A stretch of DNA of 32,000 bases. Origin: Candidatus Scalindua sp. GTDB taxonomy: Bacteria; Planctomycetota; Brocadiia; Brocadiales; Scalinduaceae. Positions 18,099-29,638 of this stretch are shown in pieces (position 1 is the first letter of the stretch; every line of letters begins with the position of its first letter). Position numbers and translations under genes: made by a program. The notes below the pieces were generated by a model that saw nothing but the letters and a program-made list of their open reading frames with translations, was not told the DNA's origin and made no database searches. The DNA lies in assembly GCA_031316235.1 (NCBI GenBank), contig JALDRA010000001.1:2040001-2072000 (forward strand). Reading direction: 5' to 3'.

Positions 18099-18623
18099 CT
18101 ACTCATCTATCCGAACAGTTTCATTTGGAGAGATGATTTTTAGACTATCGAGTTCCAATTTACCTTCAACCTCCTCATTAAATATTGCATGGCATTCATC
18201 ACAAGACTCTGTTAGCCTGGTAAATTCCAATTTTGAGTTAACGTCATCATGATCCCTGCTGCACAGGATTAGATTATTTACCGCATGGATAAATTTGTCA
18301 CGCAAAGCTACGAACCCACTCGGAACCTCCTTGTGTTCAGCTTCATAAAGCTCCACACACGTATCACCGATACCTTCTTTGATTTCTTGTGCCCATATAT
18401 CTATTTCCACCCAATCATTGTTTTTCACTCCTCTTCCCAACCTCTTCATTGCTATGGAGGCTTTTTTCATTGCCCTTACCAAGCCAAAATCAGTAGGTTT
18501 TTCTTTTTGTACATGTTCAACACTCTCAACATTCACTTCCACCGCTTCCTCAGGCTTTTTACAGGAAGCAATGGACAGACAAACTACTAAAATAGTTATT
18601 ACTGCTATCATTGAACGGCTCAT
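18099..18623 (-). CDS. Mono-heme c lipoprotein, probably four-helix-bundle class II (cytochrome c-prime / c556-like); paralog 1
   Basis: 174-aa ORF with ATG and AAGGGGAG Shine-Dalgarno. Lipobox LSIASC (Cys21). A single CDECH heme-c motif near the C-terminus (18189-18203). The helical pattern VRAMKKASIAMKRLGRGVKNNDW resembles the cytochrome c-prime N-terminal helix. The family call is from memory. Confidence 0.6.
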   Translation of the reverse strand: MSRSMIAVITILVVCLSIASCKKPEEAVEVNVESVEHVQKEKPTDFGLVRAMKKASIAMKRLGRGVKNNDWVEIDIWAQEIKEGIGDTCVELYEAEHKEVPSGFVALRDKFIHAVNNLILCSRDHDDVNSKLEFTRLTESCDECHAIFNEEVEGKLELDSLKIISPNETVRIDE

Positions 18624-18742
18624 TCACTCCCCTTATCTAAATTTTTCAAACAAATATTCCATTTATACAATTTAACTGAATTATATATAGCGATTATTAC
18701 TGCCCCCCATTTCTTTACCAACGATATGAGCGCTTACGGTAT

Positions 18743-18822
18743 TATACCCATCACGAACTGGTTTTAGGTTTTCAGAACCCGATTTCACCAGAAATTCCTA
18801 AAATCAATTCGTGACGGGTATA
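18743..18822. repeat. 80-bp element bounded by 15-bp inverted repeats (MITE-like or structured-RNA-like)
   Basis: tatacccatcacgaa (18743-18757) and ttcgtgacgggtata (18808-18822) match at 14/15 complementary positions. The interior ctggttttaggttttcagaacccgatttcaccag resembles module A of the mosaic family. Confidence 0.5.
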
Positions 18823-18887
18823 TCACCCGTAACCAGAACAATCCCGTTATCATCAATATTCATTGAATTTGTTATTACGTATTCGTT

Positions 18888-19086
18888 ATTATACTCATCT
18901 CATAATGATTTTCGAATAAAATCTGAGAAAAAACTGAGCGGGTAATGTCCTCGGCGTTTTTTGTCCGGGGATATACTCATCTCATAATGGTTTTCGGATA
19001 AAATCCGAGATAAAATTGAGCGAGTATACCAGCAACCAGGATTTGGTTTCCGGGAAACTGAAAACCAAATCCTGGTTGCTGGTATA
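18888..19086 (-). repeat. Mosaic intergenic repeat copy R8 (reverse: C, B, C, A with perfect 24-bp hairpin)
   Basis: attatactcatctcataatgattttcgaataaaatctgagaaaaaactgagcgggt / aatgtcctcggcgttttttgtccgggg / atatactcatctcataatggttttcggataaaatccgagataaaattgagcgagt / ataccagcaaccaggatttggttt (19026-19049) - 12-nt loop - aaaccaaatcctggttgctggtat (19062-19085). Confidence 0.95.
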
Positions 19087-27417: not shown

Positions 27418-27424
27418 AAATTAT

Positions 27425-29029
27425 TTATGATTTAAAGTTTTCAAGTTCTTCTTCCATTTTTTTCATCTTTAATTCTCTTCCGATAGCAACTTTTTGAAAG
27501 TTCTCCAATTGTTCTACTTTTTTCTTAAACTCATCTCGTGACTCTTCTAATTCTGAAGTTCGTTTCCTTACATCTTCTTCGAGATTTTTCTTTGTGTGCT
27601 CCAGTTCTTTTGTTCTTTCTTTTATTTTATCTTGTAATGCTGCATTCATGTCCTGAACTTTTGTGATTTTAACAAAGTCAAGCCAGGAAGTCACATCAGT
27701 ATATTCACTGATATTTAATCCCTTTGTTTCTTCTTCTGTGCTGACTCTGATACCCACCAGTTTCTTAAGGCACCAAAAGAACAAAAGACCTAATGGAAAT
27801 GCCCAGGCGAATGCCACAATAATTCCCAGGCATTGCACCTCTATCTGTAAAAGTCGATTGGAATTAGTCATTGAAAATTCGGAAACAGGAGTAAAGAGCC
27901 CGACGGCTAAAGTGCCCCAGGCCCCACAAAAACCGTGGATGGGAACAGCACCCACAGGGTCGTCCACTTTTAATACCTTTTCAATAAAGTCTTTGGCCAG
28001 CATTGCAATAATGCCCGCACATAATCCAACAATACATGCATATACGGAACTTACCCTGCTGCAACCTGCGCCAATGGCAACGAGACCACCCATGATTCCT
28101 AAAAGAATCTCTGCGGCATCCAGCCCTTTATTTCTCAGTTTTCCAAAAATTGCTACAGCTACACCCGCAACCGACCCTGAAAGAGTTGTATTGATAATAA
28201 CTAATCCAATGCTTGTATCCGCTCGTAAAAAAGAACCTCCATTAAATCCAAACCAGCCAAACCACAAAAAAAAAGTGCCGATTGTCGCCAGAGGCAGATT
28301 GTGTCCATGCATCCTGTTTACCGTGCCCTCAGAATTAAACTTCCCAATTCTTGGGCCAAGTACAAAAGCGCCTGACAAAGCTACCCAGCCACTAATGGAA
28401 TGAACAACTGTAGAACCTGCAAAGTCTATAAATCCCAAATTTCCAAGCCAACCGTGTTGATTGAAATAAAACAGGTGCCCCCATGCCCAATGACCGAAGA
28501 CAGGATAAATCACGCAGACTACAAAAATAGTTGTACATATGTGGGTCAAGAGTTTTGCTCTTTCAGCAAATGCTCCAGATACAATGGTGGCCGCAGTACC
28601 CGCAAATACCAGTTGAAAAAATACAAAGGCATATCCTAAAGTGTTTGGATGAACATCAATACCGTTTAAAAGGAAATTATTACTACCCACATAACCTTTA
28701 TAGCTTAATCCGAACATGATCCCAAAACCTACGACAAAATATGTAATGGAACTTACAAGGAAATTCAATATATTCTTTATGGAAACGCTTATGGCATTTT
28801 TTGCCTGCACTGATCCGGCTTCAAATGCAGTAAACCCTACCTGCATGAAAAAGACCATACTGGCGGCAACAATAATCCAGATATAATCTATTTTCTTCTG
28901 GATCATCTGCAGAGATATTTCTGCGTATTCAGCATATACAGTATCATGCGGATAAAGAATAAATGTAAGCAAACCTATACTGAAGAAGATAAGTAAAACA
29001 AGCCCTTTATGTTTTTGTCTGTTGCTCAT
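27425..29029 (-). CDS. amt: Ammonium transporter family protein with 86-aa C-terminal coiled-coil extension (Amt2; possible sensor-transporter)
   Basis: 534-aa ORF with ATG. Amt signatures are IDFAGSTVVHSISGWVALSGAFVLGPRIGKF, GWFGFNGGS and DPVGAVPIHGFCGAWGTLAVGLF. The tail is aa 449-534 (27428-27685): WLDFVKITKVQDMNAALQDKIKERTKELEHTKKNLEEDVRKRTSELEESRDEFKKKVEQLENFQKVAIGRELKMKKMEEELENFKS. Confidence 0.92.
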   Translation of the reverse strand: MSNRQKHKGLVLLIFFSIGLLTFILYPHDTVYAEYAEISLQMIQKKIDYIWIIVAASMVFFMQVGFTAFEAGSVQAKNAISVSIKNILNFLVSSITYFVVGFGIMFGLSYKGYVGSNNFLLNGIDVHPNTLGYAFVFFQLVFAGTAATIVSGAFAERAKLLTHICTTIFVVCVIYPVFGHWAWGHLFYFNQHGWLGNLGFIDFAGSTVVHSISGWVALSGAFVLGPRIGKFNSEGTVNRMHGHNLPLATIGTFFLWFGWFGFNGGSFLRADTSIGLVIINTTLSGSVAGVAVAIFGKLRNKGLDAAEILLGIMGGLVAIGAGCSRVSSVYACIVGLCAGIIAMLAKDFIEKVLKVDDPVGAVPIHGFCGAWGTLAVGLFTPVSEFSMTNSNRLLQIEVQCLGIIVAFAWAFPLGLLFFWCLKKLVGIRVSTEEETKGLNISEYTDVTSWLDFVKITKVQDMNAALQDKIKERTKELEHTKKNLEEDVRKRTSELEESRDEFKKKVEQLENFQKVAIGRELKMKKMEEELENFKS

Positions 29030-29113
29030 TTTTTATCCTTATATGTGTAGTAGTAAAATAGCTCTCGTATAAGCACAAAAACCCGTAAAATAGAAATGCA
29101 CCGATAGTAAAAA

Positions 29114-29638
29114 CTACTTAATTAATGGAACATTTTGATCAGGAGAAGCGATTGTTAGATTTTCAAGTTTCAATTCATCTTCAACTTCCTCATTAAATAG
29201 TGCATGGCATTCATCACAAGATTCTCTTAGCTTTTCAAATTCTAATTTCGAATTAACGTCATCATGGTCTCTGCTGCACAACATCAGATTTTTTGTGGCG
29301 CGCAGAAATTTGTTTTGTAAAGCTATGAACTCGTTTGGAACTTCATTGTTTTCTGCTTCATAAAGTTCCACACACTTATCGCCTATACCTTCTTTGATTT
29401 CTTGTGTCCATATATCTATTTCCACCCAATCATTGTGTTTTACTCCAATGCTCAGCCGTTTCATTGCCATGGAGGCTTTCTTCATGGCCCTTACCAAGCC
29501 GAAATCAGTAGCTCTCTCTTTTTGTACGTGTTCAATACTCTCAACATTTGCCTCCTCCACTTCCTCAGGCTTTTTACAGGAAGCAATGGACAGGCAAACC
29601 ACCAAAATAATTATTACTGCTATCATTGAACGGCTCAT
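29114..29638 (-). CDS. Mono-heme c lipoprotein, cytochrome c-prime-like; paralog 2
   Basis: 174-aa ORF with ATG and AAGGAGA Shine-Dalgarno. It has the same lipobox LSIASC and CDECH (29204-29218). It is colinear with 18099-18623, with no gaps and about three quarters identical residues by my manual count. Confidence 0.6.
   Translation of the reverse strand: MSRSMIAVIIILVVCLSIASCKKPEEVEEANVESIEHVQKERATDFGLVRAMKKASMAMKRLSIGVKHNDWVEIDIWTQEIKEGIGDKCVELYEAENNEVPNEFIALQNKFLRATKNLMLCSRDHDDVNSKLEFEKLRESCDECHALFNEEVEDELKLENLTIASPDQNVPLIK

Follow-up and report, generated by a model that had tools for sequence, protein, structure and literature searches.

A conserved Amt/haem-kinase/PII locus of Candidatus Scalindua: a candidate split-form ammonium-receptor two-component module of Brocadiia

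Gene content and conservation of the locus

The DNA analysed, hereafter the window, comprises 32,000 nt of Candidatus Scalindua sp. (GCA_031316235.1, contig JALDRA010000001.1, 2,040,001-2,072,000 of the forward strand). Seven genes make up a unit in it: Amt1 and a kinase, an orphan of 122 aa in convergent orientation, a sigma54 activator, two PII genes (the first degenerate) and Amt2 (Table 1). All ORFs, motifs and coordinates named in the initial annotation were found in the window, and the anammox host that it considered plausible and unproven was confirmed, Candidatus Scalindua sp. being a marine anammox bacterium. Its domain calls for the Amt, PII, kinase and activator proteins were borne out by Pfam, with the PII-like protein below the P-II cut-off. 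Ammonium_transp was matched by Amt1 and Amt2 alike (E about 1e-107), and the activator gave REC, Sigma54_activat and HTH_8 matches with GAFTGA readable in the sequence.

Table 1. Features of the locus, with positions in the window
Feature	Position	Strand	Basis
CXXCH lipoprotein copy A, class-II cytochrome-c-like, Scalindua-specific neighbour	29114..29638	-	Family and profile comparison
Amt1, ammonium-receptor-type, Ks-Amt5 paralog, with C-terminal signalling helix and coiled coil	27425..29029	-	PDB scores, ligands, relatives
Amt1 tail, residues 447-534	27428..27691	-	Alignment with Ks-Amt5-type and Amt-PAS-HK fusions
Sensor histidine kinase: TM, sCache_haem, TM, HAMP, PAS, PAS, GAF, PAS, HisKA, HATPase	24235..27417	-	Pfam
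Kinase Tll0287-like/DUF3365 sensor domain	26842..27318	-	PF11845 (85 bits), haem-site alignment, flanking hydrophobic segments
122-aa orphan, convergent with kinase, restricted to class Brocadiia	23830..24198	+	Conservation, database counts
Sigma54 -24/-12 promoter of orphan, TGGCATGTTTATTGC	23750..23764	+	Motif scan; kept in five genera
Two dyad sites, GGCTGATTACTGCC and GGCAGATTACAGCC, 41 nt apart, activator/orphan intergenic region	23617..23671	.	Conserved block
NtrC-family sigma54-dependent response regulator: REC, AAA+ with GAFTGA, HTH_8	22187..23584	-	Pfam, NCBIfam
Conserved non-coding block, about 180-230 nt upstream of PII-operon promoter	21925..21977	-	Five-genus alignment
Sigma54 -24/-12 promoter of PII-like/PII/Amt2 operon, TGGCACTTTTATTGC	21733..21747	-	Motif scan; kept in five genera
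Degenerate PII, 143 aa from GTG 21669, Kuenenia nrp_4	21238..21669	-	PII core, T-loop, B-loop comparison
PII with effector-site changes, Kuenenia nrp_3	20765..21199	-	Pfam (88 bits), ortholog comparison
Amt2, transporter-type Amt, Kuenenia amt_4	19239..20690	-	PDB scores, ligands, gate residues
Intrinsic terminator of PII-like/PII/Amt2 operon	19141..19168	-	11-bp stem, 8 GC pairs, T-rich tail
CXXCH lipoprotein copy B	18099..18623	-	Duplicated segment

The seven-gene unit is kept in at least ten Brocadiia genomes with unrelated flanks. Gene order is identical in Kuenenia, Jettenia, two further Scalindua, S. japonica, Loosdrechtia, Brocadia and unnamed MAGs, with different flanks each time, and the neighbourhood of haem kinase, Amt, sigma54 activator, PII and Amt is present across anammox genera. 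The annotated spacing of 7 nt between the Amt1 and kinase genes was confirmed by measurement, and the gap is 3-12 nt in every module compared. Full-length kinase orthologs, with 69-85% identity, occur in all anammox genera, and the next relatives fall to 28%. Activator identity is 77-92% within modules of this split type and 60% in modules with a fused Amt-kinase (see below).

The orphan is about 80% conserved among orthologs. Among 1.84 billion representative proteins its family accounts for just 3 clusters, and its 15 loci among 185,579 species genomes all belong to Brocadiia/Planctomycetota. The AF2 model has a pLDDT of 85, and no fold match to it was found in the PDB. It does have its own sigma54 promoter, as annotated, but position 23750, given as the gene start, is the -24 element, and the ATG is at 23830.

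The description of the PII pair as non-canonical was borne out: every ortholog shows the same departures. The degenerate PII keeps the PII core and the T-loop WR..EY and carries a conserved extension at its C-terminus, but the ATP-binding B-loop is missing. From a TTG start it reached 21.5 bits, under the Pfam cut-off, while from GTG 21669, which is probably the true start (orthologs of 140-144 aa), it aligns to PII residues 1-78 with E=1e-7; its homolog in the fused-type module L022 clears the P-II cut-off. In the second PII, the changes R38S, Q39E and K40I are conserved, R47, Y51, K58, the B-loop and R101/R103 are retained, and the C-terminal extension is about 32 aa long. Amt2 lacks the N1 glutamate, a key residue missing from all its orthologs, and has a non-canonical Phe gate (V152/Y269, D270).

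The two lipoproteins, 75% identical, had been called cytochrome c-prime-like. They are class-II cytochrome-c-like, but their Cytochrom_C_2 scores of 18.5 and 19.4 bits are below the Pfam cut-off of 26.5. Both lie in duplicated segments (18041-18695 and 29056-29711) with 83% DNA identity and associated REP/MITE-like repeats, so that the presence of one lipoprotein per Amt results from a local 656-nt duplication. The family is confined to Scalindua, with just 15 clusters in all, and adjoins the module in two genomes only. Scalindua OFTM180 (L009/L012) has a single-copy homolog at the copy B position, downstream of Amt2; in S. japonica the homolog is on another contig, unlinked to the module. No lipoprotein was found beside the module in Kuenenia, Jettenia, S. 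japonica, Loosdrechtia, Brocadia, B27T3L11, RIFCSPHIGHO2_02_FULL_40_12 or Scalindua P6-7. The lipoproteins are therefore local additions that lie outside the conserved unit, contrary to the proposal that each Amt is accompanied by one as a component of the system.

Amt1 and the haem kinase

On sequence grounds, Amt1 belongs to the receptor clade (Ks-Amt5/Sd-Amt1 class). It scored 480 bits against PDB 6EU6, the Amt module of Ks-Amt5, 317 against Sd-Amt1, 193 against AfAmt1 and about 135 against EcAmtB; Amt2 scored 170-200 bits against all Amt structures compared, from the Ks-Amt5 module to EcAmtB. Comparison with the published N1/N2 ligand set (PMC11152129) gave Q63, E70, K85, N86, F90, T145 and T148, with N89 replacing Asp, and the Amt1 orthologs share this set, exception included. 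The match to the N1/N2 signature is not strict, and the cluster that this signature defines holds about 30% of all Amts, plant AMT1 transporters among them. Among the 120 nearest relatives, the non-orthologs are almost all Amt-HisKA-HATPase, Amt-PAS or Amt-MCP fusions. The C-terminal tail of about 88 aa is strongly conserved in five genera: its first 40 aa or so are homologous to the linker entering the kinase DHp or PAS domain in fused ammonium receptors, and its last 50 or so form a coiled coil specific to the split form. These scores, ligands, relatives and linker homology argue against a "twin-Amt uptake" system, Amt1 appearing to be a Ks-Amt5-type receptor module and not a second importer. 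Since Scalindua genomes also encode a true Ks-Amt5 ortholog (P0182), Amt1 is a paralog of that protein and not its replacement. The canonical transport motifs (W, S, Phe gate, twin-His) are intact in Amt1, and it may also transport, since of the three residues that block the pore in Ks-Amt5 it retains just one (F66), the other two positions being F69 and S73.

In two sister-lineage modules, L021 and L022, a single ORF (1249 and 1263 aa) encodes Amt followed by PAS-PAS-GAF-PAS-HisKA-HATPase. This ORF is tiled by Amt1 residues 36-480 at 57% identity and kinase residues 262-1058 at 45%, and is followed by the orphan, activator, degenerate PII, PII and Amt2. Fused Amt-HK proteins were found in at least three independent MAGs and as four database proteins, so an assembly artefact is unlikely. 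Since Amt1 and the cytoplasmic part of the kinase are fused in the sister-lineage module, the form in the window is taken to be a split receptor-kinase.

The kinase, 1060 aa long, was described as a membrane protein with a haem-c sensor, three PAS domains and a GAF, in agreement with the Pfam order and the CLKCH motif (residues 157-161). Its Tll0287-like/DUF3365 domain (residues 34-192; 85 bits, Pfam cut-off 24) has a hydrophobic segment on either side, and the CXXCH lines up with the Tll0287 haem site (PDB 5B82) and is invariant among orthologs. No conserved distal Cys, His or Met was found in the sensor domain among the anammox kinase orthologs compared. Judging from its family assignment, the split-form kinase has acquired its own periplasmic haem-c Cache domain, of a family recently shown to sense NO, which is in keeping with the earlier suggestion of a haem-sensed signal. 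Signalling-linked Tll0287-family members bind NO tightly and form no stable O2 complex (preprint 10.64898/2026.02.01.703092).

Promoters, expression and the proposed circuit

The two annotated sigma54 promoters are present, with TGGCAC-N5-TTGC before the PII operon and TGGCAT-N5-TTGC before the orphan. The number of motif matches in the window, 2 versus 1.64 expected by chance, is itself unremarkable; however, in five genera both precede the same genes by 73-92 nt, and with this conserved position they are not explained by chance. The PII-operon promoter, 78-90 nt upstream of the PII-like start in the five genera, is also found in L022, and an orphan-type promoter precedes a distant orphan homolog in L011. 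The terminator after the second Amt was likewise confirmed. The two dyads are the sole matches across the window and lie in a block conserved in the five-genus alignment; they are a candidate activator-binding site. The conserved block upstream of the PII-operon promoter differs from these dyads. Alignment and a window search gave no obvious motif shared by the upstream regions of the two promoters, which calls for either a second activator or more complex logic.

The direct orthologs in K. stuttgartiensis MBR1, KSMBR1_3716-3722 (amt_4, nrp_3, nrp_4, ..., amtb_1), have published transcriptomics (PMC7438415); the Kuenenia Amt1 is amtb_1 (UniProt A0A2C9CKL7). That study reported that the amt_4/nrp_3/nrp_4 operon is induced when nitrite is limiting, and proposed amt_4 to be of low affinity and induced in ammonium excess. 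Expression of nrp_3, nrp_4 and amt_4 was 8- to 10-fold up in ammonium excess and that of the orphan ortholog KSMBR1_3720 11-fold up under ammonium limitation (supplementary table), figures that are for Kuenenia, not Scalindua, and come from NH4+-limited versus NO2--limited chemostats in which the ammonium signal is inseparable from a nitrite/NO signal; amtb_1 was weakly expressed and unchanged (PMC7438415). The induction in ammonium excess agrees with the NH4+-stimulated kinase activity reported for Ks-Amt5. The expected co-regulation of both sigma54 promoters was not observed: in Kuenenia under ammonium limitation, the orphan goes up and the PII/Amt2 operon 8- to 10-fold down. Because of this opposite response, the wiring is not a simple single-activator regulon, contrary to what had been implied.

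The best explanation of the locus, with a probability of roughly 55%, is a split-form ammonium-receptor two-component module specific to Brocadiia, in which an ammonium-sensor-type membrane protein and a haem kinase probably switch, jointly, a second ammonium channel and its regulators. NH4+ would be the signal, bound by Amt1 at an intramembrane N1/N2-type site, and the signalling helix and coiled coil would couple physically to the membrane kinase encoded 7 nt downstream and modulate it, with NO as the putative signal for the haem domain. The kinase would phosphorylate the adjacent sigma54 activator, which may directly drive promoter activity, the two conserved promoters acting as a switch: the degenerate-PII/PII/Amt2 operon would be on when ammonium is plentiful relative to nitrite, and the orphan when ammonium is limiting. 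The two PII proteins may be plugs or regulators of Amt2 and perhaps of Amt1.

Both Amts could instead be importers, each with a cytochrome c'-like lipoprotein, the haems of lipoproteins and kinase making up an integrated ammonium/redox uptake system. The gene order in the window, the cytochrome-like character of the lipoproteins, the homolog downstream of Amt2 in OFTM180 and a degenerate terminator after copy A, which permits read-through into Amt1, are in line with it; nevertheless, with a lipoprotein family limited to Scalindua and missing beside the module in other genera, a second copy arisen by local duplication and Amt1 in the receptor clade, this proposal is very improbable and largely refuted, the lipoproteins not being conserved with the module. 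It is also unlikely that Amt1 is a plain transporter or transceptor co-transcribed with an independent kinase, its tail serving trimer regulation or PII binding. On that account, the kinase senses through its haem, PAS and GAF domains only. The intact transport motifs, the single pore-blocking residue, the real transporters among cluster-2 Amts and a kinase amply equipped with sensing domains of its own would suit a transporter, but Amt1 and the kinase are one polypeptide in the sister lineage inside the same module, as separate genes they always have a gap of 3-12 nt, the tail shows homology to receptor-to-kinase linkers and the closest relatives are overwhelmingly sensor fusions.

Regarding the haem domain, a report of redox state or O2 exposure in place of NO is conceivable though doubtful: stand-alone sCache_haem proteins appear redox-related, Tll0287 itself is a His/Cys low-potential haem protein and anammox bacteria are O2-sensitive, yet output-fused members acted as NO, not O2, sensors, with a stable O2 complex in none, and the lack of conserved distal Cys, His and Met in anammox kinases fits an open, ligand-binding haem. 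As for the targets, the local kinase and activator might act elsewhere, one or both adjacent promoters being driven by global NtrC-like or other sigma54 activators. The opposite responses in Kuenenia and the differing conserved upstream elements point that way, as does the orphan, whose behaviour resembles that of amt_1 to amt_3, nrp_1 and nrp_2, the classical genes of nitrogen limitation. Against it, the activator gene lies between the two promoters in every genome, fused-type modules included, the dyads lie upstream of the activator gene itself, as far from the orphan promoter as enhancers typically are, and no alternative target of the local pair is known. At least one promoter is most economically assigned to the local activator, and action elsewhere is considered rather improbable.

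Comparison with known systems

In the Kuenenia study (PMC7438415), amtb_1 is labelled as having a histidine kinase domain, whereas the 539-aa protein lacks one, the kinase being encoded by the following gene; the haem sensor, sigma54 activator, promoters, orphan (supplementary table only) and fused relatives are not discussed there. The closest solved relative of the Amt1 Amt module is Ks-Amt5 (kuste3690, Ca. Kuenenia stuttgartiensis, PMC5764959, PDB 6EU6), from the same group of organisms. Both have N1/N2-type ligands (Q, E, N, T, T) and, after helix XI, the linker motif EYxDVTSWLDF...QDLN...ERT.EL. Unlike Ks-Amt5, Amt1 has no HisKA or HATPase, its linker runs on into a coiled coil of about 50 aa, Asn replaces Asp at one N-site and two of three pore-blocking residues are missing. 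In addition, the kinase partner, fused in Ks-Amt5, is here encoded separately, is much larger and carries a transmembrane haem sensor of its own, and the PII genes belong to the Amt1 module, not to amt5. Sd-Amt1 (Shewanella denitrificans, Amt-HAMP-GGDEF receptor, PMC11152129, PDB 8QJ3), the second-best structural relative, shares the switch Lys (K85 in Amt1), the N1/N2 ligand pattern and the principle of a receptor built on the Amt fold; its output is c-di-GMP synthesis by a fused domain, while that proposed for Amt1 is the partner kinase.

The orthologous module of Hypogeohydatales-type Brocadiia (L021, L022, P0129) has the same neighbours as in the window. Its fused Amt-PAS-PAS-GAF-PAS-HisKA-HATPase lacks the TM-haem-TM-HAMP segment and the extra coiled coil of the split form, and its Amt2, unlike that of the window, retains the canonical GWFGFNAGS Phe gate. 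With the sCache_haem (DUF3365/Tll0287) NO sensors, the kinase shares the Pfam family, the CXXCH and the TM-sensor-TM-HAMP layout, and these systems include a Cache_haem-HAMP receptor that signals to a separate kinase, the HAMP/coiled-coil contacts being a precedent for coupling between proteins (10.64898/2026.02.01.703092, 10.64898/2026.05.25.727664). Here, in contrast, the domain is on a kinase paired with an Amt-type receptor, and NO binding is predicted. Finally, the classical NtrB/NtrC-sigma54 control of glnK-amtB in Proteobacteria has in common with this locus an activator of the NtrC family, a PII with T-loop Arg47 and Tyr51, and a PII-Amt operon headed by a sigma54 promoter. It differs in that the kinase here is not NtrB-like nor, as far as visible, PII-controlled, and in that effector sites are altered or lost in the module's two PII paralogs. 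Regulation also runs in the opposite direction, with the PII/Amt2 operon on in ammonium excess, and the proposed primary sensor is an Amt-type receptor instead of the glutamine/2-oxoglutarate pool.

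A seven-gene unit shared by anammox bacteria

Every ORF proposed in the initial annotation was recovered where it had been placed, and Pfam profiles confirmed the domain calls for both Amts, the kinase, the regulator and PII, with the PII-like protein and the lipoproteins scoring below cut-off. The suspicion that the host is an anammox bacterium proved correct: a Candidatus Scalindua sp. MAG encodes a protein with 100% identity to the kinase, whose orthologs occur in anammox bacteria. Full-length orthologs with 69–85% identity are found in S. japonica, Kuenenia, Jettenia and other anammox bacteria, after which the next best match drops to 28%. 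The surrounding DNA of these relatives contains an invariant core composed of Amt1 (~538 aa), the kinase (~1060), a convergent 122-aa ORF (the orphan), the sigma54 activator (~465), the PII-like protein (~143 aa), PII (~145) and Amt2 (~484). It was found in Kuenenia CSTR1, Jettenia CY-1, S. japonica, MAG B27T3L11, Scalindua OFTM180, RIFCSPHIGHO2_02_FULL_40_12, Scalindua P6-7, Loosdrechtia and H5_AMX3, and partly in Jettenia ecosi and Brocadia; the Amt/haem-kinase/activator/PII/Amt neighbourhood is shared between anammox genera. Since the flanks differ in every genome (toxin–antitoxin pairs, restriction–modification genes, housekeeping genes), the seven genes are maintained together as a unit. 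No tRNA or Rfam elements were found within the window.

The earlier interpretation was retained in part. What stands is a conserved module for ammonium-plus-haem sensing in an anammox host; the lipoproteins as system parts, Amt1 as an importer and a single regulon were dropped. For the overall mechanism, that of a split ammonium-receptor module, a probability of about 0.55 was estimated.

Features of the window and their positions (strand in brackets)
Feature	Position	Remarks
Lipoprotein copy A	29114–29638 (−)	
Amt1	27425–29029 (−)	
Kinase	24235–27417 (−)	1060 aa
Orphan	23830–24198 (+)	122 aa; ORF from the ATG at 23830
−24 element of the orphan promoter	23750	
Activator (regulator)	22187–23584 (−)	465 aa
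PII-like	21238–21669 (−)	likeliest start GTG 21669
PII	20765–21199 (−)	144 aa
Amt2	19239–20690 (−)	
Lipoprotein copy B	18099–18623 (−)	
Duplicated segment	18041–18695; 29056–29711	656 nt, 83% identical
Intergenic repeats	17551–17633; 18891–19057; 29848–29932	~83–100 nt, 61–91% identical; flank both lipoprotein copies
32-nt repeat copies	17657; 29930; 30139	
Perfect 30-nt inverted repeat	19058–19087 / 29899–29928	flanks both lipoprotein copies
NIR_SIR protein beside NosL-like lipoprotein	15427–16950 (−)	270 aa (NIR_SIR)
dCache_1 protein	3910–6348 (−)	812 aa

The CXXCH lipoproteins lie outside the conserved seven-gene unit. One lipoprotein per Amt had been regarded as a part of the system, a view that was abandoned. 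The family comprises 15 clusters among 5.8 billion proteins and is exclusive to Scalindua, the S. japonica homolog is on another contig than the module, and the only module-bearing relative with an adjacent lipoprotein, Scalindua OFTM180, has a single copy downstream of Amt2. In the window, both copies lie in a duplicated segment with REP/MITE-like repeats, and this local duplication explains why each Amt seems to have a lipoprotein of its own. The repeats may have mediated the duplication.

The two lipoproteins (174 aa each) scored 18.5 and 19.4 bits against PF01322 (Cytochrom_C_2, cut-off 26.5), a profile matched by all 14 members of the family (best E=1.8e-6). The single-sequence AF2 model, with four helices and a pLDDT of 44, was unusable for fold search and was replaced in the comparison by the family profile, which matched class-II cytochromes c/c' of the PDB at 2.7e-4, the match being limited to ~50 C-terminal residues. 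The family is thus plausibly a class-II (four-helix-bundle) cytochrome c. Two Met of the first helix (Met48, Met55) and Cys85 are invariant, so haem coordination and a role in NO binding could go either way: a six-coordinate His/Met or His/Cys haem is a possible alternative to the five-coordinate high-spin haem that underlies NO/CO binding in c' cytochromes, and would make the protein a carrier of electrons instead of a binder of gases. Among the PDB matches of the family profile A1 there is also 'Small soluble cyt c' (6R6M-6R6O, E=0.012), a name that the Kuenenia supplementary table gives to kusta0087 too. The kusta0087/kusta0088 proteins are the NO-binding NaxLS cytochrome pair, to which the Scalindua lipoproteins may be distantly related.

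Just past copy B, the NIR_SIR protein (sirohaem/4Fe-4S nitrite/sulfite-reductase-like) is located beside a NosL-like lipoprotein, with TonB and a TonB-dependent receptor farther beyond. In MAG B27T3L11 (L006/L014; 880-7925, 19031-22906), the module lies inside an Amt/PII island with three additional Amt genes and three additional PII genes. The extras of this island include a dCache protein, a PII, a Ser/Thr kinase and a 155-aa CXXCH protein with weak likeness to the window lipoprotein (tblastn 4e-4).

Amt1 and the kinase with a predicted haem sensor

Amt1 and Amt2 both match Ammonium_transp in Pfam at E about 1e-107, Amt1 with an extra tail of ~88 aa. Against all PDB sequences, Amt1 gave 480 bits with 6EU6, the Amt module of Ks-Amt5 (ammonium sensor histidine kinase of Kuenenia), and 317 bits with Sd-Amt1 (ammonium receptor of Shewanella denitrificans), with lower scores for AfAmt1 (193 bits) and EcAmtB (about 135 bits); Amt2 gave 170–202 bits with all four. 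Amt1 was compared with the AmR class of Pfluger et al. (2018, 2024) in its recruitment/selectivity motifs, N1/N2 signature and transducer coupling; the class is further marked by NH4+ binding in the absence of net translocation and by an NH4+-dependent output. Amt1 has the W of HWAWG, F142, the F and S of GWFGFNGGS and both His, and its recruitment/selectivity residues align with W144, F103, F223, S227, H171 and H326 of Ks-Amt5. The proposed N1/N2 sensing-site signature is Q-X6-E-X15-N-X2-D-F/T-X54-60-T-X2-S/T (PMC11152129, 2024), to which correspond Q63, E70, N86, F90, T145 and T148 of Amt1, together with the switch Lys85, Asn89 replacing the Asp. This position is Asp in Jettenia Amt1, Val in the fused kinases of the sister lineage and Glu in a Ks-Amt5-type homolog. 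The Glu of the signature is missing from all Amt2 orthologs. Regarding transducer coupling, there is no fusion in the window; the kinase gene starts 7 nt downstream of Amt1, and the Amt1 tail begins with ~40 residues (EYxDVTSWLDFxKIxKxQDxN..L..KIKERT.EL) that share homology with the linker which in Amt fusions leads straight into the H-box or a PAS domain. The tail is almost invariant among genera.

A search of 5.8 billion proteins grouped the Amt1 orthologs in eight clusters (77–100% identity), all with the Amt plus tail architecture, and the relatives beyond them are almost all fusions: Amt-HisKA-HATPase of the Ks-Amt5 type (51–56%), Amt-PAS (52–60%) and Amt-MCPsignal. With its similarity to the Ks-Amt5 module and its sensor-fusion relatives, Amt1 is classified from its sequence as a receptor-type Amt instead of the importer initially proposed. 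It may also transport, since the N1/N2 signature cluster amounts to about 30% of all Amts, plant transporters included (PMC11152129), and of the three residues that block the pore in Ks-Amt5, F66 alone is kept.

The module was also found in unchanged gene order in three groundwater MAGs (L021, L022 and L023), whose proteins share 75–77% identity with P0129 of Candidatus Hypogeohydataceae. In L021 and L022, Amt1 and the kinase are one ORF of 1249 and 1263 aa, respectively, with the Pfam order Ammonium_transp, PAS, PAS, GAF, PAS, HisKA, HATPase_c and without the TM/Tll0287/HAMP segment. Residues 36–480 of Amt1 (57% identity) and 262–1058 of the kinase (45% across about 810 residues) together cover the fusion from end to end. 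Since both proteins are one ORF within the same module, there is strong comparative evidence that they operate as one signalling device. The stop codon of Amt1 and the start of the kinase are 3–12 nt apart in all genomes (27417–27427 in the window; L001, L003, L005 and L006), and the two ORFs share the same frame in four of the five, the window being out of frame. A fusion protein made by stop-codon read-through was rejected, since the frame differs in the window and Kuenenia has a second in-frame stop. The close junction may be the trace of a fused ancestor's split. A further Amt-PAS...HisKA/HATPase sensor, in three ORF fragments, was seen on JGI metagenome contig Ga0452214_029784 (2-4243); a REC-only protein and then a REC plus KaiC-like ATPase protein come after it, so its downstream partners are unlike those of the sigma54 module.

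The kinase was resolved by Pfam into Tll0287-like (former DUF3365), HAMP, PAS, PAS, GAF, PAS, HisKA and HATPase_c domains, the first of them (PF11845, residues 34–192) with 85.1 bits against a cut-off of 24.1. CLKCH (residues 157–161), invariant in five orthologs, falls on the haem-binding CLACH of Tll0287 in the alignment. This agrees with the initial description of a haem-c sensor with three PAS and a GAF, the CXXCH match marking a candidate covalent haem. The haem domain has no conserved distal Cys, His or Met in the orthologs compared. Hydropathy peaks at about residues 1–27 and 198–231, with HAMP at 226–276, and the haem domain, between the two hydrophobic segments, is predicted to be extracytoplasmic (outer or p side). 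The kinase reached none of the NCBIfam equivalog cut-offs. In a 2026 preprint (10.64898/2026.02.01.703092), DUF3365/Tll0287 domains were recast as haem-containing Cache domains, and a signalling-linked member, among the Pseudomonas proteins that provide the NO-binding data, showed an NO k_off of about 6e-4 per second and no stable O2 complex. Since a family member linked to signalling binds NO, the earlier guess of NO was reasonable; by this analogy, NO as the second signal, read by the kinase haem, is a tentative proposal with the odds somewhat against it. Elsewhere in the window, the 812-aa dCache_1 protein also has HAMP and two to three PAS domains and a C-terminus without recognisable output domain, and it may be another receptor signalling to a separate partner.

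Promoters, expression and output proteins

The regulator belongs to the NtrC family, with REC (8–116), Sigma54_activat (146–313, 247 bits) and HTH_8 (419–456) domains, GAFTGA and the phospho-acceptor Asp in ISDLKMP. Since it missed the NCBIfam equivalog cut-offs for AtoC, NtrC, NtrX and ZraR, it is not classed as a named ortholog. The sigma54 motifs are present exactly at the positions initially annotated. A GG-N10-GC element is found 73–92 nt upstream of the orphan and of the PII-like gene in Kuenenia, Jettenia, S. japonica and MAG B27T3L11, and it is this conserved position, rather than the match count (2 in 32 kb versus 1.64 expected by chance), that makes the promoters credible. The orphan does have a sigma54 promoter of its own, but its start had been set at what is the −24 element. 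Two GGCWGATTNNWGCC dyads with a spacing of 41 nt are located upstream of the orphan only. No motif common to the upstream regions of both sigma54 promoters was found, the GGC-N8-GCC dyads being confined to the orphan side, and the PII operon is preceded by a separate conserved block, unlike the orphan dyads. A sigma70 scan with 33 matches versus 38.3 in shuffled sequence was uninformative on the Amt1–kinase or activator promoters.

The module orthologs of Kuenenia are KSMBR1_3716-3722. The kustc1009-1015 amt/PII cluster was rejected as the corresponding locus, since it contains amt_1 to amt_3, nrp_1 and nrp_2 and has the opposite regulation. UniProt A0A2C9CKL7 (amtb_1/KSMBR1_3722 in PMC7438415) is exactly the Kuenenia Amt1 (L001 8372-9991). 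Table 1 of PMC7438415 labels it as an Amt 'with histidine kinase domain'; since the 539-aa protein consists of the Amt domain and coiled-coil tail only, with the kinase as a separate downstream gene, the '-HK' label is not literal. Expression of amtb_1 was weak and did not change. The operon of amt_4, nrp_3 and nrp_4 rose 8- to 10-fold when nitrite was limiting (ammonium excess), and amt_4 was proposed as a low-affinity transporter (PMC7438415). KSMBR1_3720 is the orphan, from gene order and consecutive accessions. With 396 RPKM when ammonium was limiting and 35 when nitrite was limiting (padj 3e-8), it is the ninth of the induced genes in rank (supplementary table of PMC7438415). An unstudied, lineage-restricted 122-aa protein is among the Kuenenia genes most strongly induced by ammonium limitation.

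Co-regulation of the orphan with the PII/Amt2 operon, which had been predicted beforehand, failed, since the published responses in Kuenenia are opposite, and the same data contradict the single regulon of the initial annotation. From the opposite expression and the differing upstream elements, it follows that the module behaves as a reciprocal switch, operated either by two activators or by one activator in two modes.

PII (88 bits in Pfam) keeps R47 and Y51 of the T-loop, K58, the B-loop of the ATP site and R101/R103, while R38S, Q39E and K40I occur in every ortholog; it has a C-terminal extension of about 32 aa. In PII proteins, R38, Q39 and K58 belong to the 2-oxoglutarate/MgATP ligands. 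In PII–MgATP–2-oxoglutarate structures, Gln39 helps to coordinate the Mg2+/2-oxoglutarate site, so its replacement probably alters effector sensing. From its likeliest start (MKRVTAFVKP...), the PII-like protein (21.5 bits, under cut-off) aligns with canonical PII from residue 1, with E=1e-7 to PDB 1HWU, over PII residues 1–78 only. The WR..EY T-loop motif and core are kept, the nucleotide-binding B-loop is absent and there is a conserved C-terminal extension of its own; the protein is taken as a degenerate PII member. The pair is non-canonical, as proposed, with systematically altered effector sites. The pore entrance of Amt2 is also non-canonical, with Val152, Tyr269 and Asp270 in place of EcAmtB F107, F215 and N216. 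Its Phe gate GWFGFN is changed to GWLAYD in all split-module lineages, and the fused-module lineages (L021, L022) retain GWFGFNAGS; being confined to split-module lineages, the change co-occurs with the haem-sensor kinase.

The orphan is about 80% conserved and restricted to Brocadiia, the census of 185,579 species genomes giving 15 loci, all Brocadiia/Planctomycetota. It has no match in Pfam or NCBIfam. Structure prediction from a 4-sequence alignment gave a beta-hairpin, four helices and a second beta-hairpin (pLDDT 85, pTM 0.80), for which a fold search of the PDB found no neighbour (best E about 1, TM 0.33). Its one distant homolog (38% identity) is downstream of an Amt2-like gene and an extended PII with Ser-Glu again at positions 38–39, with exact sigma54 promoters before both units, which ties the family independently to PII/Amt biology. 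Short contigs of Brocadiales MAGs (L011 (= L026), L024 and L025) show a minimal arrangement, in which a sigma54 promoter precedes an extended PII and an Amt2-like gene, and after a terminator a second sigma54 promoter precedes the orphan homolog. Two Amt genes of L011 are separated by a phage-type integrase. It can be speculated that the orphan modulates the activator, the kinase or the PII/Amt complex.

A possible two-input reading and known systems

In its most extended form, the Amt1–kinase pair would be a two-input NH4+/NO detector. Amt1 would read NH4+ through its intramembrane N1/N2 site, and the kinase would read NO through its haem-c Cache domain, NH4+ and NO being the two substrates of hydrazine synthase. 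Since c-type haem maturation is placed at the anammoxosome membrane in the working anammox model (PMC4222556), the pair may reside in that membrane, where it would read the substrate balance inside the organelle and switch between two reciprocal outputs under sigma54 control, the PII/Amt2 set and the 122-aa orphan. If true, the haem sensor would have been gained via the split of an ancestral fused Amt-kinase, coinciding with the Brocadiaceae/Scalinduaceae lineages and with their remodelled Amt2 Phe gate. Taken as a whole, with anammoxosome siting, reciprocal outputs and lineage-linked haem gain, this reading is unlikely.

For substrate sensing and balance in anammox bacteria, and for their many Amt/PII paralogs, the module is a concrete, conserved and experimentally tractable candidate, in which an Amt-type ammonium receptor is paired with a separate kinase with a candidate NO-binding haem, and promoters and outputs are defined. 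It is built of known parts (AmR-type Amts, sCache_haem sensors, NtrC-family activators and PII–Amt pairs) in an arrangement not described as such. In contrast to the fused form, the kinase of the split form has its own membrane anchor, haem-c sensor and HAMP, while Amt1 keeps the signalling helix and adds an extra coiled coil. Work on Ks-Amt5 and Sd-Amt1, where the transducer domains were disordered, left open how Amt receptors transmit their signal, and the split and fused versions of the module constitute a natural experiment on this question.
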